A DNA stretch of 64,000 nucleotides from a virus. This document shows, piece by piece, positions 7,796 through 41,567 of this stretch. The notes below the pieces were generated by a model. It saw only the letters and a program-made list of their open reading frames with translations, made no database searches and was not told the origin of the DNA. Both the position numbers and the translations under genes were made by a program. Each line of letters opens with the position of its first letter. Position 1 is the first letter of the stretch. Location: IMG/VR virus record IMGVR_UViG_3300046543_000386, positions 2,754-66,753 of that record; one strand, 5' to 3'.

Positions 7796-7826
7796 GGCGG
7801 GGGAGCGATCCCCCGCCCTTTTCTTT
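7796..7826 (+). terminator. rho-independent terminator
   Basis: GGCGGGGGA-GCGA-TCCCCCGCC then CTTTTCTTT, between convergent genes. Confidence 0.85.
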
Positions 7827-9684
7827 ACAGCCCCGCCGCGTGCAGCCGCGCTTCCAGCGCCGCGATCTTGGCCGATTGCTCGGAGATCAGCGCCACCAGT
7901 TCCTTGGTCACCTGCGGGAACAGCGCGCTCACCAAGCCGCCCTGATCCACCCCGACACTGACCGGCTTGTCGATGTTGTTGCCGTCGAGCCTGCGTGTCG
8001 CCTGCGGCATGATCGCTTCGATCTCTTCAGCGACCACACCCATCTTGCGCTGGCCGGTGGCGATGTCGGTGTAGTCATAGCCGGTGATCGCCAGCGTCAG
8101 CGCCAGCGCGCCCGCGATTGGCACCAGATCCTTCTTGCTCTCCCTGGCCGAGTTGACGATCCACCCGCCATAGTTCCAGGCATAGGCTGCGTTGGTGAAA
8201 ACATACGGCCACCCGGCAACGCCGATGACCACCCCGCCGCCGCCGGAATACATGTGGGTGTCTTGTGCCTGCGGCATCAGAAATTCGTTGTAGCAGCGGA
8301 GATTGATTCCGACATTCACATCGGCATGGGTGCTGATTGATCCATTATTCACGTAGATGTTGCCGCCGATGTCGAAGTTGCCATTGACCCCCAGGTGGCC
8401 GTTTATTTGCGCCCAGTCCCAGGTCTGCAAGGCCTGCGCGTACACGACGTTAGTGACGTGGCAATCCCAACCGCAGTTGATGTTGTTGCTGGAGTTGACC
8501 GTGCCCGCCTGCAAGGTGCCATCGATGTTCATACTGCCGGTGGAATGCATGTATCCGGCGGTGACCGCGTTGGGGGTGGCGATGTTGCCCGCGATGTTGG
8601 CGCTGCCGCGAATGCCAAAGTTCGCGCCGCCGTCGAGCGACATGTTGATACGGCCCGCGTAATCCACCCACCACCAAGATCCGGTCGATCTTTGATACTG
8701 CTGCCTCCAGCCATCAGAAGCATGGAATATGTAGTTGTAGTCGCCGCCCGTCGTTGCGTAGTAGGAAGAATTGTTGTTGTAGGAGAAAAACGCATTCTGG
8801 GTCGCCAGGGTGTTGGCGCCCTGCGCGTTGCCTGCGGCGTAGGTGTGGGTGGCGCTGAGGTTTCCCGAGACGTTCAGGTTCCCGGCGGTGTCGGCGGAAA
8901 ACCGAATGCGCGGGTTGGTGGCATCGTAGACGCCCCAGGTGCCGCCCGACGTGCAATAAGGATAGACCGTTCCATAGCCGGTGCGGAAATACAGATCAAC
9001 CTCGCCCAGCCCGGCGTTGCCGATGCCGATGCTGGTGTTGAACTGCACGCCGCCCGAGATGTTCAGGCTGCCCGCACTCACGTTGCCCGCAATGGCGGCG
9101 TTGCCACCGCCAGGACCGGCCGTGAGCGACAGATAGCTGGCCGCCAGGGTGTAGGTGCAGGAGATACTGCCCAGAGATGTCAGTGACGTGCCGTCCGACG
9201 TCAGATTGCCGTTACCATAGAAAAACCCGGCGACGTTCTGCTGGATCGCGCCGTTAGGCCCAGACGGCGTCGAGGTGTTGACCGCGAGCACGATGTTGAA
9301 CCCGTCCGACAGGATCTCGGTACGTGCATTGGTCGGAACGGTCACCGTGGCGCCGCCACCGGTTCCGGCATAACCGCTGGCAAAACGCAGGACGAAATTG
9401 CCGGTGGTGTAGTTGGCAACCACCCACTTGCCGCCCACCCCGGAGGGAATCACGTAGGTGATGTTGGCGGACATCGTTCCGGCAATCGCAATATAGGACG
9501 GCTGATACTGCGCCACCGACAATACGACATTGCCCGACACGCCCGTGGCGTTCAGGTTCGTGGTGCCGCCCATCACGGTGTCGAGGGTAACCCAGTTGCG
9601 GTTGACCGGTGAATCCCAGGTATCGACAAGATCGCCATGGCCGGGCGATTCGAGGTTCTTATTGGCGCTGAATGTGCTGGCCAT
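7825..9684 (-). CDS. tail fibre/spike with C-terminal peptidase S74-like chaperone domain
   Basis: N-terminal virion-anchor-like segment (DTWDSPVNRNW...LD), G/N-rich beta repeats, C-terminal NSARESKKDLVPI...MGVVAEEIEAIMP plus coiled coil. Confidence 0.8.
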   Translation of the reverse strand: MASTFSANKNLESPGHGDLVDTWDSPVNRNWVTLDTVMGGTTNLNATGVSGNVVLSVAQYQPSYIAIAGTMSANITYVIPSGVGGKWVVANYTTGNFVLRFASGYAGTGGGATVTVPTNARTEILSDGFNIVLAVNTSTPSGPNGAIQQNVAGFFYGNGNLTSDGTSLTSLGSISCTYTLAASYLSLTAGPGGGNAAIAGNVSAGSLNISGGVQFNTSIGIGNAGLGEVDLYFRTGYGTVYPYCTSGGTWGVYDATNPRIRFSADTAGNLNVSGNLSATHTYAAGNAQGANTLATQNAFFSYNNNSSYYATTGGDYNYIFHASDGWRQQYQRSTGSWWWVDYAGRINMSLDGGANFGIRGSANIAGNIATPNAVTAGYMHSTGSMNIDGTLQAGTVNSSNNINCGWDCHVTNVVYAQALQTWDWAQINGHLGVNGNFDIGGNIYVNNGSISTHADVNVGINLRCYNEFLMPQAQDTHMYSGGGGVVIGVAGWPYVFTNAAYAWNYGGWIVNSARESKKDLVPIAGALALTLAITGYDYTDIATGQRKMGVVAEEIEAIMPQATRRLDGNNIDKPVSVGVDQGGLVSALFPQVTKELVALISEQSAKIAALEARLHAAGL

Positions 9685-12779: not shown

Positions 12780-15700
12780 TCATCCCCCCGGGTTGAAATA
12801 GCGGCCCATATTATCCACGCCATACCGATCTCGGAACAACCTATCAATCTGTTTCTGCGTGCCCTTGCCGCTCTGGATCAGATCCCAGGCTTTCTTCATC
12901 TCGGGATCGAGCAGAGCGCGCTTGATGGCGGTCGCCTCTGCGTTGTACTGCGACTGCGGATTGCGCTCTTCGAAGGCCCGTTCGAAGTTGTTGCCATAGA
13001 TGCGGATTGGCCCAGGTCCGTAATGGGGCGCGTATTGCTGCTTATCCAATGCGCGCTGATTGCCAGAGGCAAACGTCCCAGCGATTTCCGCCGCCGCTTG
13101 CGGCGTCATCTGCCGGTTGGGGAATGCGGCCATAAGCTCGTTAAGCGCTCCTAATGATCTCTGATCGCCCAGCCGCGCCCGGTCGGAACCGTTGATCGCG
13201 TTCAGCTTGCGGCTGATATCTTGCAGCGTGTCAGCATCCCCGAACCCTTCGAAGTCAGGGAGTATTGCTTTTGCGTAAGTATTCACCGTCTTGAGTATGG
13301 CGGAGCGCGTTTCGCTTTGCGCTCCGGGGGCGTTCAGAACCCGCTGCGCCCAGTTCACGTCATTCGGCGGCGCGGTCAGAGACTGCAACAGCGGCACCAG
13401 GGTGGGACGCGCGGCACGTGACATATCTGCGGCGTCGCCAATGGCGTGTATCTTATTGACAGAGTCCGCCTGATATTTTTCGGTCATGCCGGGAGGGGCA
13501 CTCATCGCCGTGCGCCTGTCTTCGTCCGCATAAGCGTCGGTATTGCCGCCAACATTCACCCCGGACAACGGCACGGGTGTGGCCGGGCGCGGGGTCGTGT
13601 CAATCGGCTGGCCGCTCCCAGGCTGCGCGGTGGCAGAGCCTGGAGCGCTCCCTACCGCCGCCCCGCCACCTTCTCCGCTCCTCGTGTAGCGCTCCTGATG
13701 CGCCAGGAAGTCGGATGTCGGAATGAGTTTGTTCCTGCGGTCTACGTTGTCGTAAACCTCGGTCATGTAGCCTTCCGAAGTTCCCGGCATGTAGAACGAC
13801 GACGCCCGGCGGTTCGCCTGCTGCTGCGCCGTAGTCTTGGCCGCTTGTGCCGCACGCTCCTGCATCTGGCTCTGCACGTTCTCATAGGCGCCAGCGGCGC
13901 CGCCGATGCCTTGCAGGATGGCGCTACCCAGGTAGCGGCTGGGCGAGGACGCCATGGTGCCGATGCCGGTGAGCAGCGGCATCAGCCAGTCCTGATTGCG
14001 ACTGATCCAGCCCGGCTTCTCGTCTCCCCCGCCCTGCTGCTGTTGCTGCTGTGGCTGCTGCTGCGGCGGTGGCACCAAGCCTGCGGGGGCGGCAGCAGGT
14101 GCCGCGCCAAGCCAGGGCTGATTGCCGGGAGGGGGCGCAGGAGGCGCCTGGGGGCCAGGGGCGGGCGCCTGGGGGGAGAACCCGTCAGCCGTGCCAAACC
14201 GCCCCACACGCTGATCCACGCCCGCCGCAGGGGGTGGTGCGCCACTGCCCGTGCTGCCCACCATGAACGCGGGCTGGCCATCGACCGTGGCACCCGGCGC
14301 TGACGGCTGCCCCCAGGTATTGGGCACGCCCCCGCCAAGCCCTGGCGCGGGGATGCTGGGGGCGTTGGCGGCGTAATCGAACCCGGCACCCACCGGGGTG
14401 TAGCCACGCCCGGCACGTGCCGCTTCCAGGCTGCGCGCGTTCAACTGGTCCGCGACGTTGTCATTGCCCGCCAACCCCGGCCGGGGCGCGGCAGGTGCCG
14501 CAGGCGCGCCAGCGGCTGTGGTTGCAGGCGCACCCGGCTTGGCCGCGACGGCAGGCGCCGCAGGGACTGCCGGTGCAGCAGGGACTGCCGGTGCGGGGGT
14601 CGCGGGCTTGCCGGGCGCTCCCGCGTTCGTCGGCGGGGGAATCTCGTCTTTTTGCGGGAACAGGATATTCCGCAGCTTAAACCCGGCCTCCTCCACCGGA
14701 TTTTGCGGTGAATAGGGTGCGTTTTTGGCCGCCGCCATCTGCGCTGGCGTGGGCGGCACGCCCGCCGGGCCGCTCTTTTCGTCAGGCTTCGCGGCGCCCA
14801 GGCCAAGTTCCAGCGCTCTCGCCCTGGTTGACGCCTGCTCGCCTTCACGTTCATGCGGCGCCAGCCCTGGCTGGATGGCCGGGGTCCATTCCTGCGCCGC
14901 TGGCGGCTTGTCCTCGAAATGAGGTGCTGGCGGGCGCACGGCGGTGTTGCCAGGAACAATTGCACGCCCCCAGCGCGCCAGCTTGTCATCGAAATTCGGC
15001 CCCGCCATCCCTCGGCTGGCCATGATGGCTTCGACGGTGTCGCGATCCGTGCCGTAGCGCTGGGGATAGCGCCACGCCTCGCCAAATTGATCGCGGTTCC
15101 AATTTGCCGTCTGAAATTCAAACGGCTTGCTGGGGTCGAAATCCGCCTGCGGCCCCTGTCCGGGGGGCAGCGGTGGCGGCGGCTTGAGTGTCCGCTTTAT
15201 TTCCCCCGTATCAGGGTCGCGATATTCCACCGTGTCATCCGGCCCCGGCGGGCGTTCGTCAGGGGTCGCCATCCTGACCTTGGGCACAAGGCCGGGCGTC
15301 GGCGTGACGGCCTCGCTCGGCGGATCTCTCCGCGCTTGCGCTTCCTTGGTACCTTCAACCACCGTGGGTTCGACCATCCGGCGCGACACCGCCGCCGGAT
15401 CTTCTTTAAGGATCGCTGTATCTGGTTTGGCCTCGGGCAGCGGCTCGGCCTCACTGGGTACCGCCTGCGGCGGCAGCGAGCGCGGCACCAGACCCCGGTT
15501 TGACTCCAGATTGGGGTCAACGTCGGGGGTGCTAGGAAGCTCGCTGATCCACTGCGCGTCGGTGTTGTCGTCCGCCGTGGGGCTGCCACCTTCACGGAAT
15601 TTGCGCCGCCTGCGAGCCTTGATGTAGCCGCCGCTCTTCGCCAGCGCCACGAGCAGCAGGGGCGCCACTTCCGCAGCGGTGGCAGCACCTGCCGTTGCCG

Positions 15701-18700
15701 CCGCCGTGGTACCTGCCGCCGCAGCCGCAGCCGCTTCTGAGGCCGCCGCCGCTGCCGCCGCCGTGGCGGCTTCGCCCGCCCCCGCGCCCGCGCCCGCCGC
15801 AGCGGCGTCGCCAGCAGCCCCGGCGGCGGCGTTGGACGCCATCATCGTGGAAGGTGCCGCCGCCTCGGCCGTAGATCCCGCCAGACCCCCTGGAACCTCG
15901 CCCGCCTCGGCCACAGGCGGCGTGGGCGGCGTGGGCAGCGGCGCCGCGTTCATGGGGGGTGAAGCGCCGCCGGGCGGCCCCAGCGGCTCTGCCGTGACCG
16001 GTGTGGTGGGGCTAGGCGCCCCCAGCGGCTCCGATGTGACCGGCGTGGTGGGCGCGGCATTGCCGGGCGCCACTGACGGGTTCGTGCCGGGCGAGGTCTT
16101 GCCCAGGAAATTGCGGCCAAACCAATCCGATTCGTAAATATTCTTGCCGGTCTTTCCCATCTGCACGGCTTGATTGGCGGTGCTGATGGTCTGCCCCGCG
16201 CCACCGCTTGGCGGCGCGTGCGGCAATTGCGCCACCTGCAAGGCACGATCCTTGTGCTTGTCGTCCGTCACGCCAGCTTGCCCCATATAGCCGCCTTCGT
16301 CCTGGCTGTAGGGCAAGCCGCCACCCGCCAGCCCGACGCGTCCGCCATGGGCCTTGCCGAACAACATGCTCTGGAATGTCTGCGTGATCCCCGGCCCCTC
16401 GGGCGGCGGCGGCGGCGCCTTCATCAGTTCCTTCCGCTCGCCGTCGGTCAGATCGTCAATGCCGGGCTGATCCATGTAGCCGCCACCAGCCAGCCCGACC
16501 CGGCCGCCAGCGGCACTGCCAAACACGTCGTGGTATTTATCGCTCACCCAATTGGTCGCCTGATCCCACAGGCTCGGATCGGGTGCCGTAGTAGCGGTCG
16601 CGGGCGCCGCCGTGGATGGGGTGGCAGGCGCGGGAGGTGCCAAGCCCGGCGCGGGCGTCGAGGGCGCTCCTGGCGTGGTCGTGCCGATGATTTTGTTCTT
16701 GTCCTTGTCGTCCCAGATATCCTTGCTGCTCTTGTAGAGCTTGGTGAGATCATTGGCGGTCGAGACGCCCTCTTTAGCCCCCGCACCAGGGTCCGATGCC
16801 TTGGGAAGGTCCGCCGTCAGCAGCTTGCGTGTGGGCGGCGCGCCATCGGTCGGCACGTAGCCGGGCTTCTTGCCGCTGTACAGGCCGGTCTGCCAGCCCT
16901 TCATGATGGGGGAAGCGTAAGGATCTACGGCTTCAGCTTGGCCGCCGCTGGCGCGCACCAGCCCGCCCCGGTAATTGCCGCCACCGCCGCCGCCCTCGCT
17001 GCCCGTCCAGTTATCGTGCGCGTCAAGGTTCACGGGCGCCGCTACCGGGGCAGGATCAGGCGCCTTGGCGGCAGGCGCCGCCGCCTCGGGGGCTTTCGCG
17101 ACCGGCGCCAGGGCGGCCGGATCAGGCCCCTTCAAGGGCGCGACCGGCGTGCTCGCGGCGGGGGTGGGCTGGGCAGGCGCCGGGGTTCCGGCTTCAGGTA
17201 CCGGCGGCAGGTTCCCGCCCGCCACCCCCGCCACCGGATCGGCTTTCAGCCGGGCGAAGGAATCCTTCGACGTGTCGGCGTAAGCGCTGACGGCCTTGTT
17301 CAGATCGGCCATGGAAAAACTCGGCAGGCTGGCATCATCCAAGGAGGCGCCAAGCTTGGGCAGGCTGCCACTGACCGGCCCCGGCGAGGGCGGCAAGCTC
17401 GCAAAGGCCTTGTCCACCGCACCGGTATAGTTTCCGGCGGCAAGCCCGAGATCCGGCCAATCGCCGGGCACGGCACCACCGCCAGCGGCAAAGCCCGGCC
17501 TGCAATTCGCCGCCTGCACATTGGCGGGGATCGGGGTGCTCGATGCCGACGTCGTGCCCTTGGGGGTGTTGCTGATGGCGGGTGGCATGGTTGCCTGGGC
17601 CGCCTGAGAATTTGCCGCCTGCTGCGCGGAACTGAAGCTGCTCATCACGTCTTGCGGGACCGGAGTGCCCGGCGCCGATGTCGTGCCCTTGGGGGTGTTG
17701 CTGACGGGCGGGCTGGGCCTCCCGGTGAAGGAGTTCATCAGGTCGGGCGGGATCATGGTGCTGGTGGGGGATGCCGTGCCCTTGCCAAGGGCGCTGCCGC
17801 CCATGGCGAAATGCCCGCGCTCGGCGGCGCCCCGCGTCGCCTCGTCGTAATCCACCATCTTGTAGCCATGCGCGCCCAGGCCGACCGCGTCCGGGTGATG
17901 CCGCTCAGTATCCTGCGCCGACAGGCCGATCTGATGCCTCGGATCGCCCTTGTAACGGAACTTGATGATGTTCTGCCCGTCGAAGGTTTTGCCGATAGGC
18001 TCGATGTCTTCCTTCAGCCGCTCATCGGAGAAGAACGACGACGACTGCGACCCCGTGGTTGACGACCCCGACAGCGCGCCCGTGCCCTCCGCGATGTTGG
18101 CGAGGAACTGCGAGGTCTGGAACGGATAAGCCTGCTGCTGGAGGAACTGGTTGTAGAGCGCCGACAGCCCGGCCTGATTGGTTTGCTGCTGTACCTGCCC
18201 GGCCGCCATCTGCGCCTGCGCGCCCTGCAATCCCGCCGTCTGCGACCCGGTGCCAAGATCCGCCAACTGCTTAGAGGTGTTGGCGCCCTCCGTGTATAGC
18301 TGGTTGCCTAGCGCCGCCTGCTGCTGCGCCGTGGTGGCGCCCTGGCCAAACGATTGCTGCGCCGTGGTGCCCAGCCCCTGCGCAAGCTGGTTGTAAAGCC
18401 CCGATTCCTGCCCGGCGAGTTGCCCGTAGCCTTGCGCCGTCTGCGCCCCCTGGCCGTAAGCCTGCTGGCCGATATTGGCAAGCTGCTGCCCGGTGCCGGT
18501 CATCTGCGAGTAAAGCTGCTGGCCGGTATTGGCCATCGCCTGCCGGTTGGCCTGCGAGGCGGCAAGCTGCTGCCCCTGCTGCTGGGCCGCCGTGTTCTGC
18601 GCCTGGGTATATCCCGATTGCAGAACATTCGCGAGTTGCTGCTGGTTGGCCATGTTCTGCTGGTAGCCAAGATTGGCCTGCGCTACCCCCGCGCGGTCGC

Positions 18701-19355
18701 CACCAAAGGCGCCTGCTTTGATGGCATCACCCTTCAGCCCCGATTGCTGCTGCGCGTTCTGCATCTGTTGCGCGTTCAGCAGCGAGTTCACCACGTTGCC
18801 CATGTAGGGCGACATGTATTGATTGGTGTTCAGCGCCCCGGGATCGACCTGTTGGGCGCCCGCCATGGTGAACGGCGTGGCCGCCGCCAGCCCGCCCGTG
18901 ACGGCCTGCGTGGCCGCCTGATTGTAAGCCGATCCGGTCTGCTGGGCGCCCTGGTAGCCCTGCCCTGACGCCGTGAGCCAGGGCTGCGCGCTGTTGGCGG
19001 CGTTGTAGTATTGCCCGACCGCCTGCCCCTCCAGACCCTGCGCCTGCCCATAGGCGTTGCCTATCGTGTTCTGCGACGCCGTGATGTAGGGCGTGGCCCC
19101 TTGCTGGGCCGCGTTCAATATATTCGTCGCCGCGCCGAAGAATGGCTGCGCCTGCCCGGCATACTGGTTGGTGTTGTTGATCGCCGCCTGCTGCGTCCCC
19201 GTCAGATTGGCGACGAACGCGTTGGGATCGTCGGAATACTTCTGGAACGGCGTCTTGGCCGCGTTCTCGGCCGTGGCATTGACGGAATTATACCGCGCCA
19301 TCACCTCCGGAGGGATCTGGATGGTCGATGATGAGTTGGTGTTCTTACCGCCCAT
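12780..19355 (-). CDS. large DNA-ejection/pilot-like internal virion protein with internal S74-like domain
   Basis: MGGK start, Q/A/G-rich N-terminal 440 aa, FSDERLKEDI...IGLSAQD...PDAV...MVDYD, Pro/Ala-rich remainder; follows the GNAT-like gene as in podovirus modules. Confidence 0.72.
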   Translation of the reverse strand: MGGKNTNSSSTIQIPPEVMARYNSVNATAENAAKTPFQKYSDDPNAFVANLTGTQQAAINNTNQYAGQAQPFFGAATNILNAAQQGATPYITASQNTIGNAYGQAQGLEGQAVGQYYNAANSAQPWLTASGQGYQGAQQTGSAYNQAATQAVTGGLAAATPFTMAGAQQVDPGALNTNQYMSPYMGNVVNSLLNAQQMQNAQQQSGLKGDAIKAGAFGGDRAGVAQANLGYQQNMANQQQLANVLQSGYTQAQNTAAQQQGQQLAASQANRQAMANTGQQLYSQMTGTGQQLANIGQQAYGQGAQTAQGYGQLAGQESGLYNQLAQGLGTTAQQSFGQGATTAQQQAALGNQLYTEGANTSKQLADLGTGSQTAGLQGAQAQMAAGQVQQQTNQAGLSALYNQFLQQQAYPFQTSQFLANIAEGTGALSGSSTTGSQSSSFFSDERLKEDIEPIGKTFDGQNIIKFRYKGDPRHQIGLSAQDTERHHPDAVGLGAHGYKMVDYDEATRGAAERGHFAMGGSALGKGTASPTSTMIPPDLMNSFTGRPSPPVSNTPKGTTSAPGTPVPQDVMSSFSSAQQAANSQAAQATMPPAISNTPKGTTSASSTPIPANVQAANCRPGFAAGGGAVPGDWPDLGLAAGNYTGAVDKAFASLPPSPGPVSGSLPKLGASLDDASLPSFSMADLNKAVSAYADTSKDSFARLKADPVAGVAGGNLPPVPEAGTPAPAQPTPAASTPVAPLKGPDPAALAPVAKAPEAAAPAAKAPDPAPVAAPVNLDAHDNWTGSEGGGGGGNYRGGLVRASGGQAEAVDPYASPIMKGWQTGLYSGKKPGYVPTDGAPPTRKLLTADLPKASDPGAGAKEGVSTANDLTKLYKSSKDIWDDKDKNKIIGTTTPGAPSTPAPGLAPPAPATPSTAAPATATTAPDPSLWDQATNWVSDKYHDVFGSAAGGRVGLAGGGYMDQPGIDDLTDGERKELMKAPPPPPEGPGITQTFQSMLFGKAHGGRVGLAGGGLPYSQDEGGYMGQAGVTDDKHKDRALQVAQLPHAPPSGGAGQTISTANQAVQMGKTGKNIYESDWFGRNFLGKTSPGTNPSVAPGNAAPTTPVTSEPLGAPSPTTPVTAEPLGPPGGASPPMNAAPLPTPPTPPVAEAGEVPGGLAGSTAEAAAPSTMMASNAAAGAAGDAAAAGAGAGAGEAATAAAAAAASEAAAAAAAGTTAAATAGAATAAEVAPLLLVALAKSGGYIKARRRRKFREGGSPTADDNTDAQWISELPSTPDVDPNLESNRGLVPRSLPPQAVPSEAEPLPEAKPDTAILKEDPAAVSRRMVEPTVVEGTKEAQARRDPPSEAVTPTPGLVPKVRMATPDERPPGPDDTVEYRDPDTGEIKRTLKPPPPLPPGQGPQADFDPSKPFEFQTANWNRDQFGEAWRYPQRYGTDRDTVEAIMASRGMAGPNFDDKLARWGRAIVPGNTAVRPPAPHFEDKPPAAQEWTPAIQPGLAPHEREGEQASTRARALELGLGAAKPDEKSGPAGVPPTPAQMAAAKNAPYSPQNPVEEAGFKLRNILFPQKDEIPPPTNAGAPGKPATPAPAVPAAPAVPAAPAVAAKPGAPATTAAGAPAAPAAPRPGLAGNDNVADQLNARSLEAARAGRGYTPVGAGFDYAANAPSIPAPGLGGGVPNTWGQPSAPGATVDGQPAFMVGSTGSGAPPPAAGVDQRVGRFGTADGFSPQAPAPGPQAPPAPPPGNQPWLGAAPAAAPAGLVPPPQQQPQQQQQQGGGDEKPGWISRNQDWLMPLLTGIGTMASSPSRYLGSAILQGIGGAAGAYENVQSQMQERAAQAAKTTAQQQANRRASSFYMPGTSEGYMTEVYDNVDRRNKLIPTSDFLAHQERYTRSGEGGGAAVGSAPGSATAQPGSGQPIDTTPRPATPVPLSGVNVGGNTDAYADEDRRTAMSAPPGMTEKYQADSVNKIHAIGDAADMSRAARPTLVPLLQSLTAPPNDVNWAQRVLNAPGAQSETRSAILKTVNTYAKAILPDFEGFGDADTLQDISRKLNAINGSDRARLGDQRSLGALNELMAAFPNRQMTPQAAAEIAGTFASGNQRALDKQQYAPHYGPGPIRIYGNNFERAFEERNPQSQYNAEATAIKRALLDPEMKKAWDLIQSGKGTQKQIDRLFRDRYGVDNMGRYFNPGG

Positions 19356-23285: not shown

Positions 23286-24065
23286 CTAGCCCCGCGTCGG
23301 GCTGGCGGCCACCGCCGGGGACTGCGAGGTCCACGCCGCCGCCTGGAAGCGCCTGCGCGCCTCTTCCACCGAAGCCGCCCGCAGCAGCATCTGATATTGC
23401 ATCTCGTAGCTCGGACCCATCTGCGGGTCGTTCGACGCCGGGCCGAAATTGCGCTGGAACTGCGAGACGTAAATCATCGACGCCTGCACCAGCATGTCGG
23501 GCAATTGGCTGGAGATGTAGGTGGTGGCGGTGTCGGCCAGCACCGGCACGGCATAGGCGTAGAGCGTCTGCATGCGCCGTGTGCCGCTGAGGATGACCGG
23601 ATAATCCAGATCCGGTATCGGCCCGACGATGACGTTCTGGAAGGTGTTGCCCGATGTCGTCGCGTCCCCGCCACTCATGGCGAAATACCGGGGCGTGCCC
23701 AGGGTCGAGCCTATCGGGTGAATGTTCTGCAAGAACTCCTTGGTCACCGGCAGCAGCGGCGTGTGCATCTGATCCACGACAAGGCTGAAGGTTTGCAGGA
23801 TCTCGAAATCGTTCAGATCGATGGGAAGCTGACGGCTACCCGTCGTCAGCGAATACTCGATGTCCGTCACCTGCGACTGCGTCAGATCCATGTCGCGCTG
23901 GATGCGCAGTTCCGCGTAGTTCAGCATCTGCGGGATGAGATTATTGAACGCGTCGTCCACGCCCACGACCACGCCGCCGGTCTTCTGCACGTTGACGACG
24001 GTCATCAACGCCACTTGGGTGATGTACGTGTTGTAGGTCAGGGCGGATGTGGCTTGCAGCGGCAT
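23286..24065 (-). CDS. head-tail adaptor-like protein
   Basis: LTYNTY...NYAELRIQRD...GTPRYFA...VGPIPDLDY...PDMLVQAS...YEMQYQ; precedes the nozzle gene. Confidence 0.7.
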   Translation of the reverse strand: MPLQATSALTYNTYITQVALMTVVNVQKTGGVVVGVDDAFNNLIPQMLNYAELRIQRDMDLTQSQVTDIEYSLTTGSRQLPIDLNDFEILQTFSLVVDQMHTPLLPVTKEFLQNIHPIGSTLGTPRYFAMSGGDATTSGNTFQNVIVGPIPDLDYPVILSGTRRMQTLYAYAVPVLADTATTYISSQLPDMLVQASMIYVSQFQRNFGPASNDPQMGPSYEMQYQMLLRAASVEEARRRFQAAAWTSQSPAVAASPTRG

Positions 24066-24079
24066 GGCCAGGGTCCGCC

Positions 24080-24120
24080 ATAAAATGTGGGACGGCAGCC
24101 CATTAGGCTACCATCCCACA
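24080..24120 (-). terminator. rho-independent terminator closing the PEP-CTERM moron
   Basis: Minus strand TGTGGGATGGTAGCC-TAATG-GGCTGCCGTCCCACA-TTTTAT: 15-bp stem fully paired only in this orientation (two G-U pairs). Confidence 0.78.
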
Positions 24121-24137
24121 CCGTAGTCACGCAAAGA

Positions 24138-24227
24138 TCAGTCCCAATCTCCGCGCCAGACCCGGAACATGAACGTCAGCCCGGCGACGACGACGCCCAA
24201 GGCCAGGATCAGAAACAGGGTCCACAT
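24138..24227 (-). CDS. 29-aa single-TM micropeptide
   Basis: MWTLFLILALGVVVAGLTFMFRVWRGDWD; TGATG coupling to the upstream peptide. Confidence 0.55.
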   Translation of the reverse strand: MWTLFLILALGVVVAGLTFMFRVWRGDWD

Positions 24228-24310
24228 CAGCGATAGTAGAGCGTCGCGGTGCAGATCGTGGCCACGACCCCCACCGCGAAGCCCACCAGCAAGCCTATGC
24301 TAAACCACAC
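24227..24310 (-). CDS. 27-aa single-TM micropeptide
   Basis: (GTG) MWFSIGLLVGFAVGVVATICTATLYYR; overlaps the PEP-CTERM stop. Confidence 0.5.
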   Translation of the reverse strand: MWFSIGLLVGFAVGVVATICTATLYYR

Positions 24311-25025
24311 GACGCCGACGCAGGATGGTCATGCCAACAAGGCCGACCCCCAGCAACGCCATCGAGGCGGGTTCCGGCGTGTCCACAGCGCTGAGGATAG
24401 GCACGATGTAGAAGGACTCGCCGCCGTCCACGGCATGATCCCAGCTTGCCTGGAATATCAGCCGGTCGCCCGGCTGGATGATACCATTGCCGAGATTGAA
24501 ACCGGTGATCAGATAGTCGGCTGAACCGTTGCCGTTACGGATGTCGGGCATTGCGAAATCCGTGCTCAGGTCGAAGATGATCCTGCTGCCAGGATCAGCA
24601 TCGAGATCGATCAGCCTGAAGGCGGTCAACACTTCAGACTTGGCCCCCGTGGAGTTGACATCCACGGCCACGCCAAAGGTAAGGCCGAGATCGCCCAGTC
24701 CCTGAAGCAAGGAGATAAGCTGGCTACCCGTGTAGGGTGTGCCCTGGACATCGTTCCCGAACGCGCCGGTCAAGTTGGACGAGAACAAGTTGAAGCTGCT
24801 GTCGTTGCCGGTGCTGACGAAGTTGTTGAAGCCAAAGCCTGCGGGCTGACCGCCGACGTTGGTAGCGCAGATGATGCACGGATCGGAGATCGACTGCGGT
24901 ACCACCTGAGCATCACTCAACGCCGTGATGGTCAGGTTGTCGAACGCATCCGCGTGGGCGGGGGCGACCTGGGCGAAGGCGGCAATCGCTACCGCCATCA
25001 CCCCTGCGACGAGATAGTTCTTCAT
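24300..25025 (-). CDS. PEP-CTERM sorting-domain surface protein
   Basis: Signal peptide ending PAHA; C-terminus TPEPASMALLGVGLVGMTILRRRRVV. Confidence 0.92.
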   Translation of the reverse strand: MKNYLVAGVMAVAIAAFAQVAPAHADAFDNLTITALSDAQVVPQSISDPCIICATNVGGQPAGFGFNNFVSTGNDSSFNLFSSNLTGAFGNDVQGTPYTGSQLISLLQGLGDLGLTFGVAVDVNSTGAKSEVLTAFRLIDLDADPGSRIIFDLSTDFAMPDIRNGNGSADYLITGFNLGNGIIQPGDRLIFQASWDHAVDGGESFYIVPILSAVDTPEPASMALLGVGLVGMTILRRRRVV

Positions 25026-25741
25026 GCCTGCCGCCGACGATAAGCCGCACCCAGGCCGACAAGACCGGCGCCCAGGATCAGCATGGAGGCAGGCTCAGGT
25101 ACCGCTGCCGCGAAGAGTTCAGTCTGGCCGCGATTGACCAACTGCCCGCCTGCCACCAGCGTGCCCGACACGCGCTCAGTCATCGAGAACGGCCCGGCGA
25201 TGGCGAGGTTGCCAAAATCGGCGGCGCTATAGCCGTCAGCAGCCAGGGCCGCCGTCTTTTGGAAGGTCGAAAGCAGCACGCCAGGGGTATCGTTGGCGTT
25301 GTCGGCGCCCTGAGCGTTGGCGGCGTCGGCATACCATTGCATCAGCACGTCGGAGCCAACCGCTTGCTGCCACGTGCCGGAACCGGCGACGTTCCACGCC
25401 GAAACCGGACCAAGGAAGCCGGTGTCGGAGACGGTGAAGGTCACCGGAACGGAGATGCCCAGCGTGTTGATCAGCGACGTGCTGCTGGTGTTCAGGATGT
25501 CCGTGCCGGGGTTGGCCGCAGTGCCCGTCGAGGTTTGAATCGACGTGTTGACCAGAATGCCCCCGATGGTCTGGTTGGCAATCTGGATCGTGCCGGTCGA
25601 GAGGTCGGTGTCGCAGAGCGCGTTATCGACGCAGGAAAAGTTTGTGTTGCCGAACGTGGCCGAGATCTGCAACACGGCATGGGCTGGACCGGCGAGAGCC
25701 AGCCCTCCCAACGCCGTGGCCGCAAAGAGTAGATTTCGCAT
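25022..25741 (-). CDS. PEP-CTERM sorting-domain surface protein
   Basis: Signal peptide ending PAHA; C-terminus VPEPASMLILGAGLVGLGAAYRRRQA; AAGGGA RBS. Confidence 0.93.
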   Translation of the reverse strand: MRNLLFAATALGGLALAGPAHAVLQISATFGNTNFSCVDNALCDTDLSTGTIQIANQTIGGILVNTSIQTSTGTAANPGTDILNTSSTSLINTLGISVPVTFTVSDTGFLGPVSAWNVAGSGTWQQAVGSDVLMQWYADAANAQGADNANDTPGVLLSTFQKTAALAADGYSAADFGNLAIAGPFSMTERVSGTLVAGGQLVNRGQTELFAAAVPEPASMLILGAGLVGLGAAYRRRQA

Positions 25742-25786
25742 TGTGGTTCCCTTCTTTACACCGCCACATGGCGGCAGGGGATTTGA

Positions 25787-25802
25787 TGCTCGTATCGTGC
25801 CA
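25787..25802 (-). promoter_or_regulatory. sigma54 (-24/-12) promoter
   Basis: Minus strand TGGCACGATACGAGCA: exact TGGCACG -24 box and GG-N10-GC spacing; TT of TTGC replaced by GA. Confidence 0.65.
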
Positions 25803-25839
25803 CTGACAGATGTCAGCCAAAAACCCGTTTGTCGTGTGG

Positions 25840-25872
25840 TGTAAGGATACCACAGTGTAAAGTTTTCCGACT
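25840..25872 (-). promoter_or_regulatory. putative enhancer-binding-protein site(s) (PEP-CTERM box-like)
   Basis: Minus strand AGTCGGAAAACTTTACA-C-TGTGGTATCCTTACA, about 40-70 bp upstream of the -24 box. Confidence 0.5.
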
Positions 25873-26578
25873 AGGAGACTACCTGATTGACCTCGACGCG
25901 GACCCCTGGCGGGGCGGCGATGGTGACCACCACGACGTGCTGGGGACCCGGCATCGGGATGGCGGGTTTCTCGGGTGGCGCCGTGCCTGCCCACTGCGCC
26001 TTCAGAAGGTGATCATCCACCCCGGAGCGGTTGCAATCCACATCCCCCGACACGCCGGGGGCTGCGCCCTTGTCGGTGTACTGCCAGAGGAAATACCGGG
26101 GCCAGATCTGCTTTGGCCAATCCGGCTGCGGCGCGCTGGTGTATTGCGCCACCCATAGCTGGTGCTCCTTCAGCCAGTGGATCACGGTGTCGCCCACCTG
26201 CTCCTTCAGCACGTGCCCCGAATAGATCACCGCCCGACGCTTGGTGAGCGTCCAGATCGCGGCCAGGAACTCGCGGAGGTCATCGAGGCTGACGCCGGTA
26301 TCCTCGTGATCGGCACATATCAGATCGTCATTGCCGGGCATGGCGACCTTCAGGAAACGCTGTGCCTGCGCGTGCATGTCACCGGGGCGCAGGAAATGGT
26401 ACGCCCCCCACAGCAACCCGGCATGCCGGGCATCGACCCGGCGCTGGCTATAGGTCGGATCGGTGTAATCGTCCGACTCGGTCGCCTTGTGGATAACCCC
26501 CAGAATCCCAGCCTTGCGAATCGCGGCAAACGACTCGACCCCGTTGTGGTGGCTGAGGTCTAAGACATCAGTGCTCAT
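25871..26578 (-). CDS. endolysin, glycoside hydrolase family 25 muramidase
   Basis: LDLSHHN, HKATES, WGAYHF, ICADHED (DxE), LWVAQY, LWQYTDKG...GDVDCN. Confidence 0.92.
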   Translation of the reverse strand: MSTDVLDLSHHNGVESFAAIRKAGILGVIHKATESDDYTDPTYSQRRVDARHAGLLWGAYHFLRPGDMHAQAQRFLKVAMPGNDDLICADHEDTGVSLDDLREFLAAIWTLTKRRAVIYSGHVLKEQVGDTVIHWLKEHQLWVAQYTSAPQPDWPKQIWPRYFLWQYTDKGAAPGVSGDVDCNRSGVDDHLLKAQWAGTAPPEKPAIPMPGPQHVVVVTIAAPPGVRVEVNQVVS

Positions 26579-26919
26579 GGGTTCTTTTCCCTGTTGAGGT
26601 CTTGTTGCAGCCGGGTCAGCAGAACCCCTTGGGTCTGCTGGGTTGCCGATAGGTCGGCCATCTTCTGCTGCATCTGAAGCAGGCCTTCAAGGATGCGGTC
26701 GGCCCGCGCGATCACCGCGTCCACCTTGGCATTGGCGGTCTGCACCGGTCCCGACCCATGGGTTTCCAGGGCCGCGATACGAAGCTCATGGCTGACCGCT
26801 TGCTGGCGCATCGTGCCGATCTCAGCGCCAATGATGAACACGTAGAGGCCGACAGATACGGCAGCCCCCAGCACGCCGATGGTCAGCCAGCTTGGCCGTT
26901 TTGGCGGGTCCTCTGCCAC
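26575..26919 (-). CDS. single-TM plus coiled-coil lysis-cassette protein (holin/antiholin candidate)
   Basis: N-terminal hydrophobic helix then heptad region; ATGA-coupled to the endolysin. Confidence 0.55.
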   Translation of the reverse strand: MAEDPPKRPSWLTIGVLGAAVSVGLYVFIIGAEIGTMRQQAVSHELRIAALETHGSGPVQTANAKVDAVIARADRILEGLLQMQQKMADLSATQQTQGVLLTRLQQDLNREKNP

Positions 26920-26976: not shown

Positions 26977-27177
26977 ATGAACATATTTGTGACGATGCCC
27001 ATACGGATAACAACCGATCTTGCAGGACGAATAGACGAGTTTTGGCACGAGCGTCGGCTGGTGAGCCGCGCTGCTGCCATTCGCGAATTGCTGGAACTCG
27101 GGCTGTCACGGGACCCTCAAGGGCGCCAGACCCACGAACCTCCCGCCCAAGAGCATATCCAAGAGGATCAGAACTAA
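26977..27177 (+). CDS. ribbon-helix-helix (CopG/Arc-like) DNA-binding protein
   Basis: VTMPIRITTDLAGRIDEFWHERRLVSRAAAIRELLELGL: ribbon, helix A and SR..AIR.L helix B. Confidence 0.7.
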   Translation: MNIFVTMPIRITTDLAGRIDEFWHERRLVSRAAAIRELLELGLSRDPQGRQTHEPPAQEHIQEDQN

Positions 27178-27303
27178 TATAAGCGCCATTATCACTTGCA
27201 CAATAACCGCAAACGGAGGCGGCAATGGCAGTAGTGTAATAATGTAATACACCACCCCAAATATCAGGCATAAAATCAATATGTATATGAGCAACGAAAT
27301 CAT
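27106..27303 (-). CDS. two-TM small membrane protein (holin candidate)
   Basis: MISLLIYILILCLIFGVVYYIITLLPLPPPFAVIVQVIMALILVLILLDMLLGG; next to the endolysin. Confidence 0.7.
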   Translation of the reverse strand: MISLLIYILILCLIFGVVYYIITLLPLPPPFAVIVQVIMALILVLILLDMLLGGRFVGLAPLRVP

Positions 27304-40886: not shown

Positions 40887-41567
40887 TCAGTTGCGGAAAT
40901 ACCCGGCAATCATAGGGGATATGTATTGCTGCGCGAGTTCCACATTGGTCGCGGCGGCCTTGTTGTAGGCTTCCGTCGCCAGGGGCGCCAGCAACTGCAC
41001 CTTCTCGGGCGCCCAGATCACCGCCAATTGGCCCGCCAGCCCGGTGACGAAGGCCGGATACCAGATCTGCGGGATTTGCGGCGACGCGCCGTCGGTCATG
41101 GTGGCGGTTTCGTTCTGCACCAGCCGGTAGAAGCTGAAGGTGCCCTCGATGCCATCGGGCACCGGCCACAGCGTCACCGTCGGCACAAGCTGCCGGTTGT
41201 GCCAGAACACCGTCGGCGCGCCCTGCTGCTCCTTGTTGGCATAGGCGGAATATTCGGAACGGCTGATCGGCAGCATCACCCGGTCGATGGCGTGCGCATC
41301 CGATCCGATGGTGTAGTAGGCATCGAGGATGGTGACGGTATCGGGGTCCACGTCGTAGGTGCTCTGCCCCTGCGTCAGCGGGATGGTGGCGAGATCCACC
41401 CGCCACAAATTCACCCCGTCATTGGCCCAGTGCAGCAGCATCAGGTTTGCCGCCATCCTGGCGCTCTCGAAATGCTCCTGCACGAGCGATGTCGGGCGCA
41501 GCCCGACAAGCTGGAACGCGTGCAGGATCAGGCTGCCAAATGATGCCTGGAACGAGGTGCCTGACAT
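40887..41567 (-). CDS. head-tail connector (tail tubular A-like) protein
   Basis: WANDGVNLW...ISRSEYSAYANK...GAPT...LWPVPD...W.PAFVTGLA; position after the capsid genes. Confidence 0.7.
   Translation of the reverse strand: MSGTSFQASFGSLILHAFQLVGLRPTSLVQEHFESARMAANLMLLHWANDGVNLWRVDLATIPLTQGQSTYDVDPDTVTILDAYYTIGSDAHAIDRVMLPISRSEYSAYANKEQQGAPTVFWHNRQLVPTVTLWPVPDGIEGTFSFYRLVQNETATMTDGASPQIPQIWYPAFVTGLAGQLAVIWAPEKVQLLAPLATEAYNKAAATNVELAQQYISPMIAGYFRN

Follow-up and report, generated by a model that had tools for sequence, protein, structure and literature searches.

A phage-borne operon for two PEP-CTERM proteins with a predicted PrsR/sigma-54-type control region

Layout and control region of the cassette

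The subject of this study is a small gene cassette in IMGVR_UViG_3300046543_000386, an IMG/VR virus record of 66,753 bp that is rated 100% complete. We analyzed a 64-kb stretch of this record (positions 2,754 to 66,753; hereafter the window). Between the genes for an endolysin and an adaptor protein, we found two tandem genes, here named PEP1 and PEP2, whose products have an N-terminal signal peptide and a C-terminal PEP-CTERM sorting tag. They are followed by the genes for two transmembrane (TM) micropeptides and by a terminator-like hairpin, and are preceded by a two-part control region similar to that of proteobacterial PEP-CTERM genes (hereafter the PEP-CTERM box). A first-pass annotation, made from the letters of the window, had listed an enhancer-like site, a sigma-54-type promoter, two PEP-CTERM genes, two TM micropeptides, and a terminator at this locus, and all of these are present on the minus strand (table 1; nt, nucleotides).

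Table 1. Features of the cassette, its borders, and other parts of the window.
Feature	Positions	Strand	Description
619-aa (amino acid) protein	7825-9684		Peptidase_S74 (endosialidase chaperone) domain
2191-aa virion protein	12780-19355		Peptidase_S74 domain, internal (residues 443-491)
SU10-type adaptor	23286-24065	-	SU10_adaptor, E 3e-10; downstream border of the insertion; syntenic with MW202675
Terminator-like element	24080-24122	-	intrinsic-terminator-like hairpin and U-rich tract; 15 nt between its end and the adaptor start codon
mp29	24138-24227	-	29-aa single-helix membrane micropeptide; start overlaps mp27 stop by 1 nt
mp27	24227-24310	-	27-aa single-helix membrane micropeptide; GTG start 11 nt inside the PEP2 end
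PEP2	24300-25025	-	241 aa; signal peptide, beta-rich domain unrelated to that of PEP1, PEP-CTERM tag; start overlaps PEP1 stop by 4 nt
PEP1	25022-25741	-	239 aa; signal peptide ending AHA, all-beta sandwich domain, PEP-CTERM tag (PEP motif, TM helix, RRR)
Leader inverted repeat	25761-25775	-	between promoter and ribosome-binding site; seen by eye
Sigma-54-type promoter (motif 2)	25786-25802	-	consensus -24 TGGCAC, GC at -12, GG-N10-GC spacing
Palindrome	25803-25816	not applicable	14 nt, perfect; abuts the -24 element
Motif 1	25856-25872	-	17-nt site ending TTTACA, predicted PrsR-type enhancer-binding-protein site; overlaps endolysin stop codon
GH25 endolysin	25871-26578	-	Glyco_hydro_25, E 7.6e-30; upstream border of the insertion
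TM and coiled-coil protein	26575-26919	-	114 aa; N-terminal TM helix and coiled coil; just upstream of the endolysin
Holin-like protein	27106-27303	-	65 aa; three hydrophobic helices; just upstream of the endolysin
Other SU10-type adaptor copy	40887-41567		paralogous to 23286-24065

Searches with curated models agreed with the PEP-CTERM assignment of the first-pass annotation. The tag of PEP1 scores 28.7 bits against PF07589 and 20.5 bits against TIGR02595, and that of PEP2 scores 29.9 and 25.0 bits, all above the curated cut-offs (20.7 and 16 bits, respectively). In both proteins the tag is tripartite (PEP motif, hydrophobic helix, and basic cluster) and lies 1–3 residues from the C-terminus. 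By inspection, both N-termini have the layout of a Sec-type signal peptide, with basic residues at the start, 15–20 hydrophobic residues, and AHA before the mature part. The model of the flocculation protein PepA (NF033554) also matched the two proteins (29.4 and 27.8 bits, to which the tag contributed most), below its cut-off of 80 bits. Defense and anti-defense models of PADLOC gave no match for the six proteins searched.

The AlphaFold2 model of PEP1 has a predicted local distance difference test score (pLDDT) of 90.9 and consists of a beta-sandwich to which the tag helix is appended, and that of PEP2 has a pLDDT of 80.9; pLDDT is low for the N-terminal helix of both proteins. The best fold matches of PEP1 were Bdellovibrio Bd1399 (8okh_B, Z 9.0), a Bacteroides surface glycan-binding protein (7kwc, Z 8.8), and CBM61 (2xom, Z 8.1), and weaker ones (Z 6–7.4) were the tips of phage fibers and spikes. 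Glycan binding by the passenger domains (the parts between signal peptide and tag) is a lead only, suggested by these modeled folds. We also considered whether PEP1 and PEP2 are paralogs and rejected this, as BLASTP aligns the tag only and profile–profile comparison of the N-terminal domains gave a probability of 0.4%.

The stop codon of the endolysin gene and the start of PEP1 are separated by 129 nt, in which motif 1 is followed by a 53-nt spacer, the sigma-54 element, and 44 nt to the start codon. A two-part site of this kind has been described upstream of proteobacterial PEP-CTERM genes (Haft 2006, PMC1569441): a 17-nt motif that has TTTACA at its 3′ end and was assigned to PrsR, a response regulator, is separated by 62.8 ± 10.6 nt (range 32–92) from a 17-nt motif with GG at -24 and GC at -12, and the latter is located on average 71 nt (range 23–221) from the start codon. 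Both spacings in the window are inside these published ranges. Motif 1 was compared with the published motif by its 3′ hexamer and its length. RpoN dependence has been demonstrated in Aquincola for a PEP-CTERM gene whose -24 element reads TGGCAC (PMC9850573).

To place the box in related loci, the start of PEP1 was assigned in 16 sequences, which reduce to ten distinct upstream regions; one further relative (L016, 1118 nt, 43% identity) was omitted, as its start codon could not be placed. Both motifs were matched in eight of the ten regions, most of them with the consensus TTGCA at -12, and a ninth region (L010/L017) has a one-letter variant of motif 1. No box was found in the distant locus L011 (33% identity). 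The distance from motif 1 to the -24 element is 40–84 nt in the relatives, and that from promoter to start codon is 41–68 nt. Motif 1 forms a perfect inverted repeat at one locus, which fits the expectation for the site of a dimeric activator. We then scanned both strands of the window and of nine distinct loci (~287 kb; 28,724 windows of 200 nt) for the composite of the two motifs, which occurs at eight places, all eight directly upstream of a PEP1 homolog. As a control for chance, 80 loci were taken from at least 120 stretches that match the strict composite elsewhere in viral contigs; in this sample, which is not a census, none of the 80 was followed by a tagged gene. Three loose matches to the box were seen in loci that have a PEP2-family gene only, 636–3659 nt away. 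Because it is conserved at the same place in nine of ten distinct related loci, we consider the box credible, and the predicted regulatory part of the observation is thereby stronger than the sequence of the window alone could show.

Haft 2006 (PMC1569441) found the box only in proteobacteria with PrsK/PrsR, and its presence therefore points to a proteobacterial host of this type, with soil or rhizosphere as the habitat. Rhizosphere and soil metagenomes contain DNA identical to the cassette region.

Two further elements were noted in the upstream region. The palindrome next to the -24 element is found in the window phage only and is not conserved in the upstream regions of its relatives; it is possibly an operator for a repressor of the phage or of the host. 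An inverted repeat in the leader is seen by eye at the same place in most of L001–L010, with a different sequence at each locus, and these repeats may represent a conserved 5′ stem-loop.

At the other end of the cassette, the terminator-like hairpin has a minimum free energy of -38.1 kcal/mol (z -4.23), and none of 200 shuffled sequences was as stable. An identical hairpin is present in L003, the locus of the sister phage G001, and L001 instead has another strong hairpin, with a T tract. Micropeptide mp27 is 74–85% identical in L001, L003, and L010. The differences fall mainly at third codon positions (3/1/10 at first, second, and third positions for mp27 versus L010, and 6/2/14 for mp29 versus L001) and length and stop are kept in the relatives, indicating that both micropeptides are real genes; judging from the overlaps of their reading frames, they are probably cotranslated with the operon in the window phage. 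Homologs of mp27 and mp29 were detected only in PEP1 loci (17 and 8 matches, respectively) and in none of 80 PEP2-only loci or L018. In L005 and L008, mp27 lies upstream of the box and outside the PEP operon. Thus, the micropeptides may belong to the neighboring lysis genes rather than to the sorting unit.

Insertion and mobility of the cassette

The first-pass annotation had proposed a survey of related phages for presence or absence of the genes at this locus. In the uncultured phage MW202675, the closest relative in GenBank (46% identity for both the large terminase TerL and a 773-aa protein), the lysin and adaptor genes are only 77 nt apart and the cassette is missing, and the window shows synteny with it for the adaptor, 773-aa, 136-aa, and 251-aa proteins. 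As the same lysin/adaptor junction exists without it, the cassette is best described as an insertion. The sister phage G001 has the cassette at the same place, where PEP1 is only 64% identical to that of the window phage, whereas the flanking genes are 71–96% identical. PEP1 is 58–63% identical, and is preceded by the box, in G002, G003, and G004, phages of unrelated backbones whose TerL proteins are only 27–38% identical and which lack the 773-aa protein. The identity of PEP1 does not track the relatedness of the backbones, which implies that cassette and backbone have separate histories. Judged by these comparisons, the cassette behaves as a mobile accessory unit.

A moron is an extra gene with its own promoter and terminator, located between genes that are adjacent in relatives. 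The cassette is present or absent between conserved neighbors, and it has its own promoter and terminator in silico; expression from a prophage is not among its features.

Its location in the late structural block, between a fiber-like gene and the adaptor gene, together with the weak fold likeness of PEP1 to fiber tips, would also suit ordinary virion or late structural proteins that are made by read-through only. We regard such an origin as very improbable: PEP1 and PEP2 each carry an export signal and end in a membrane tag, the syntenic relative MW202675 lacks the cassette, and neither protein shows sequence likeness to the 12 large structural proteins of the phage (best E 0.14). On the last ground we also rejected a derivation of the passenger domains from the phage's own fibers.

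The first-pass annotation had named an assembly chimera as a condition that would overturn it, and the segment could likewise stem from host DNA fused to a phage contig. Contigs from two other samples span the two outer junctions with 0 differences (X2 record 7, 25333–26033; X4 record 18, 23400–24232). The gene order is the same in G001 and in other viral loci, the two tagged genes stand in this order at four independent viral loci, and the third-position GC of PEP1 and PEP2 (0.78) is close to that of their neighbors (0.75–0.87). The junction between PEP1 and PEP2 is not bridged by the other-sample Logan contigs compared, which break near 25028–25090 in four of four runs and leave loose ends in the tag-coding stretch; these breaks are located where the two tags repeat each other. 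Taken together, a chimera of either kind is extremely unlikely. It was also observed that other-sample contigs break or diverge exactly in the tag-coding stretches 24342–24374 and 25028–25090, and many different genes in these soils appear to share near-identical tag-coding DNA.

The proposal that the phage carries these genes "probably as a prophage" fared less well. No tyrosine integrase was found in the complete record, and no repressor-like or lysogeny-type Pfam domain was found among 44 further open reading frames scanned. The genome of G001, which is complete (68,461 bp, terminal repeats; TerL 94% identical), also lacks an integrase. The only integrase-bearing carrier is G002 (46.6 kb, terminal repeats), which has an unrelated backbone. 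Given that the record and G001 are without integrase and G002 has one, the cassette is apparently present in both virulent and temperate phages, and, by its gene content, a prophage is not the likely setting for the present phage.

With regard to the remainder of the genome, the phage is podovirus-like with a G+C content of ~64%, and almost all genes of the window are on the minus strand. They encode a primase/helicase, small and large terminase subunits, an SU10-type portal, a major head protein, several very large virion proteins, a fiber-like 718-aa protein, the GH25 endolysin, a second SU10-type adaptor, and the 773-aa virion protein. No tRNA genes were found. After MW202675, the closest relatives in GenBank are podoviruses of Roseobacter and Pelagibacter. 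We also noted that the genome contains two paralogous SU10-type adaptor genes, that two of its proteins have a Peptidase_S74 domain (table 1), and that a choice-of-anchor Q domain is matched in the 718-aa protein next to the cassette.

Protein families and C-terminal tags

We examined the distribution of both protein families. PEP1 has 146 relatives in a collection of 5.8 billion proteins, nearly all of them metagenomic, and its nearest structural cluster in the Atlas has 74 members, 82% of which are viral (phylum known for 11). Twelve columns are invariant among 85 sequences, and the PEP motif is retained in 98 of the 120 PEP1 relatives listed. No relative of the N-terminal domain was detected in 185,579 representative prokaryote genomes by two scans with 1–2 peptide patterns, which distant or unsampled kin may escape, and tblastn of PEP1 against GenBank phages gave no match. 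PEP2 has 213 relatives; 82 loci on viral contigs were confirmed and 80 of them kept. In the Atlas, the three structural clusters nearest to it comprise 53, 59, and 218 members, of which 100%, 90%, and 100%, respectively, are viral. By these counts, PEP1 and PEP2 are members of large, mainly viral families and not a one-off capture, so that the uniqueness implied by the first-pass annotation does not hold.

The C-terminal tags of the PEP2 family were assigned to classes by regular expressions over 64 distinct viral loci. The most frequent class is VPLPA-like (28 loci), followed by a Gly/Pro-rich tag that matches no model (16 loci) and by PEP-CTERM (12 loci); six loci have other tags, and the EPGS and PEPxxW types are represented by one locus each. 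In a scan of 100 family members with NCBIfam models, PEP-CTERM was matched in 27, VPLPA-CTERM in 19, and PEPxxWA in 3. The unmatched tag begins with Val-Pro-Gly-Pro, continues with a hydrophobic stretch rich in Gly, Ala, and Pro, and ends in an Arg cluster (e.g., L019, L020, L036, L059, and L098). All seven members tested gave no NCBIfam sorting-tag match at a meaningful score. This class may represent an undescribed sorting signal.

A comparison of the window phage with its sister G001 illustrates how such proteins may evolve. The second gene of the cassette in G001 (L003:5663-6382) has a signal peptide with 24 of 25 residues the same as in PEP2 and a near-identical tag, and its middle domain is unrelated. 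This pattern indicates that the passenger was exchanged in the sister phage and the targeting signals stayed in place, and it suggests that selection maintains these signals and that the passenger is exchangeable. Fixed signals with an exchangeable passenger would be expected where the destination of a protein is important and diversifying pressure acts on its exposed part.

The neighbors of PEP2-family genes are highly varied, and the largest common neighbor family is found in only 7 of 64 loci. A third, different PEP-CTERM protein family lies directly upstream of the PEP2-family gene in 5 of the 64 distinct loci (L066:3219-4004 and four similar ones), indicating that tandem pairs of tagged genes recur with different partners. 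At L011:4938-6525, the distant PEP1 relative and a second tagged protein are in tandem; both have PEPxxW-type tags, and this, together with the missing box, is consistent with a host of a different group.

Host dependence and possible roles

The first-pass annotation had noted that no exosortase gene is in the window, and this extends to the whole 66,753-bp record; none was found in five related records either. A sigma-54 activator domain and sigma-54 itself are also missing from the phage record. Since the record encodes none of these, the unit must use a sorting enzyme and a regulator of the host. We consider it reasonably probable that the cassette is a horizontally mobile accessory operon of phages, structurally a moron, by which the host is made to produce and sort envelope proteins specified by the phage. 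The core of the earlier proposal, a self-contained unit that would plug into the exosortase and exopolysaccharide system of the host, thus appears to be right.

A reasonable mechanism is as follows. From the predicted proteobacterial PEP-CTERM box in front of the operon, host RNA polymerase with sigma-54, activated by a PrsR-type response regulator of the host, would transcribe the genes, and expression would follow the exopolysaccharide and floc program of the host, to which late-gene read-through may add. With their predicted Sec-type signal peptides, beta-sandwich passengers, and complete PEP-CTERM tags, PEP1 and PEP2 would undergo export and stay anchored in the inner membrane through the tag helix until the exosortase of the host cleaves them and hands them on to the surface or the matrix. 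In the weakest step of this scheme, the passengers might bind surface glycans and thereby mask receptors or alter the seat of the infected cell in the matrix. Other phages use the lipoprotein pathway of the host for receptor-blocking proteins, which provides an analog for the masking step. Receptor masking, exclusion, and matrix remodeling by PEP1 and PEP2 are put forward here as ideas.

Several observations weigh against this interpretation. The fold matches of PEP1 are barely above the background stated for the aligner (Z 7–8), and PEP2 matches no solved chain at Z ≥ 8 (best Z 7.6, below that background); in addition, the PEP2 model has no match in BFVD at E ≤ 0.001. Although the sigma-54 promoter reported by the first-pass annotation is upheld by the conservation of the box among relatives, its pattern within the window is not above chance (28 matches versus 39.6 expected with ≤2 mismatches), and the -12 flank of the window copy is off consensus (GAGC versus TTGC). 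None of the 64 other distinct viral loci of the PEP2 family has the box within 450 nt upstream. No terminator is present between the endolysin gene and PEP1, and late read-through may be the main or only source of transcripts. Finally, the cassette always sits among lysis-type genes (the endolysin, the TM and coiled-coil protein, the holin-like protein, and the micropeptides), and a role in lysis is possible.

Such a role would make PEP1 and PEP2 type-I inner-membrane proteins of lysis or lysis timing that act with the micropeptides, the TM and coiled-coil protein, and the holin-like protein, with the tag as a mere anchor. Every distinct PEP1 locus except L011 is within ~1.5 kb of mp27/mp29-type peptides or a homolog of the TM and coiled-coil protein, L005, L007, and L008 have a three-helix holin-like gene immediately upstream, and in two of these, L005 and L008, mp27 is separated from the PEP operon as described above. 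Inspection of the genes adjoining the endolysin revealed no lipoprotein-type outer spanin. A plain anchor, however, would not need the PEP motif, which most PEP1 relatives keep, and a promoter of the exopolysaccharide-regulon type is hard to reconcile with lysis; the swapping of relatives between recognized sorting tags and the varied contexts of the PEP2 family also speak against it. A unimolecular spanin combines an N-terminal lipobox containing Cys with a C-terminal TM helix; by sequence, neither PEP1 nor PEP2 has a Cys in the signal-peptide cleavage region or a lipobox, and this form of the lysis role was ruled out. Overall, we consider a lysis function unlikely. As an observation in its own right, homologs of the holin-like protein and of the TM and coiled-coil protein occur together with PEP1 cassettes of other phages, with their order shuffled.

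Another explanation starts from the same sequence facts. Two tandem tagged genes whose promoter would be active during synthesis of the host substrates could serve as exosortase decoys: the enzyme would be flooded, PEP-CTERM proteins of the host would remain immature, the matrix would loosen, and progeny would escape. In Aquincola, the level of one PEP-CTERM protein alters soluble exopolysaccharide and floc formation (PMC9850573), which would agree with such an effect. On the other hand, the passengers are well folded and conserved within their families, as seen from the pLDDT of PEP1 and its invariant columns, which a pure decoy would not need. We therefore judge the decoy explanation improbable, and a mobile operon for host-sorted envelope proteins remains the reading that we prefer.

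The unit can be compared with several known systems. Cellular PEP-CTERM genes under PrsK/PrsR/RpoN, including Aquincola pepA, share with it the signal peptide and tag, the short operon, and the TTTACA site, spacer, and sigma-54 element (PMC1569441; PMC9850573). In contrast to these, the window unit is encoded by a phage and located in its late block, its passengers belong to mostly viral families, and its intergenic region is 129 nt long, whereas >200 nt is reported as typical for the cellular genes.

The second comparison is with surface-directed morons of phages. Lambda Bor and Lom, Llp of T5, and Cor of phi80 and N15 are examples. Like the cassette, they are extra units that bring their own promoter and terminator and are inserted where two genes adjoin in a relative, and they encode envelope proteins that are sorted by the host. 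Unlike them, the window unit would use the exosortase route rather than a lipoprotein or beta-barrel route, its promoter is of a host-regulon type that needs a host activator, and the phage shows no lysogeny genes.

"Choice-of-anchor" is the NCBIfam naming for protein families in which, as in the PEP2 family, one passenger family is found with several different C-terminal sorting tags. The PEP2 family differs from these in being mainly viral and in having one tag class (16 of 64 loci) that matches no NCBIfam model in the members tested.

A mobile virus-like element with a PEP-CTERM-annotated protein is known from Dehalococcoides, whose IME1 elements encode HOG10 (bioRxiv 10.64898/2026.09.15.751708). 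That case concerns another host phylum and another kind of element, and the accessible part of the preprint mentions no sigma-54/PrsR control region. In the full-text literature covered, to which subscription journals do not belong, we found no published description of a phage-encoded PEP-CTERM gene with such a control region.

More generally, we tentatively suggest, as a possibility that we rate well below the interpretation of the cassette itself, that phages of double-membraned bacteria commonly carry a class of exported beta-sandwich proteins, made up of a signal peptide, a swappable passenger, and a tag matched to the host, which would be planted on the host surface by the host's own sorting enzymes. 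The tags within this proposed phage-specific class are PEP-CTERM, VPLPA-CTERM, PEPxxWA, and the frequent unmatched tag. PEP1 cassettes might, in addition, take over the PrsR/sigma-54 switch, and the tag could serve as a marker for host prediction.

If these suggestions are true, sensing the biofilm or floc state of the host would be open to virulent phages as well. If the reading of the cassette that we prefer is right, a phage gene can be placed under a two-component system by which the host signals matrix production, which would bear on phages in flocs, rhizosphere biofilms, and activated sludge. Phages would then exploit the surface sorting of their hosts by a second route beside the lipoprotein route, and the kind of C-terminal tag could help to assign uncultured phages to host groups. 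Sorting by exosortases is still poorly understood, and the fate of the substrates has rarely been shown directly. The phage-borne substrates and their compact control region would offer small, portable test objects for this pathway.

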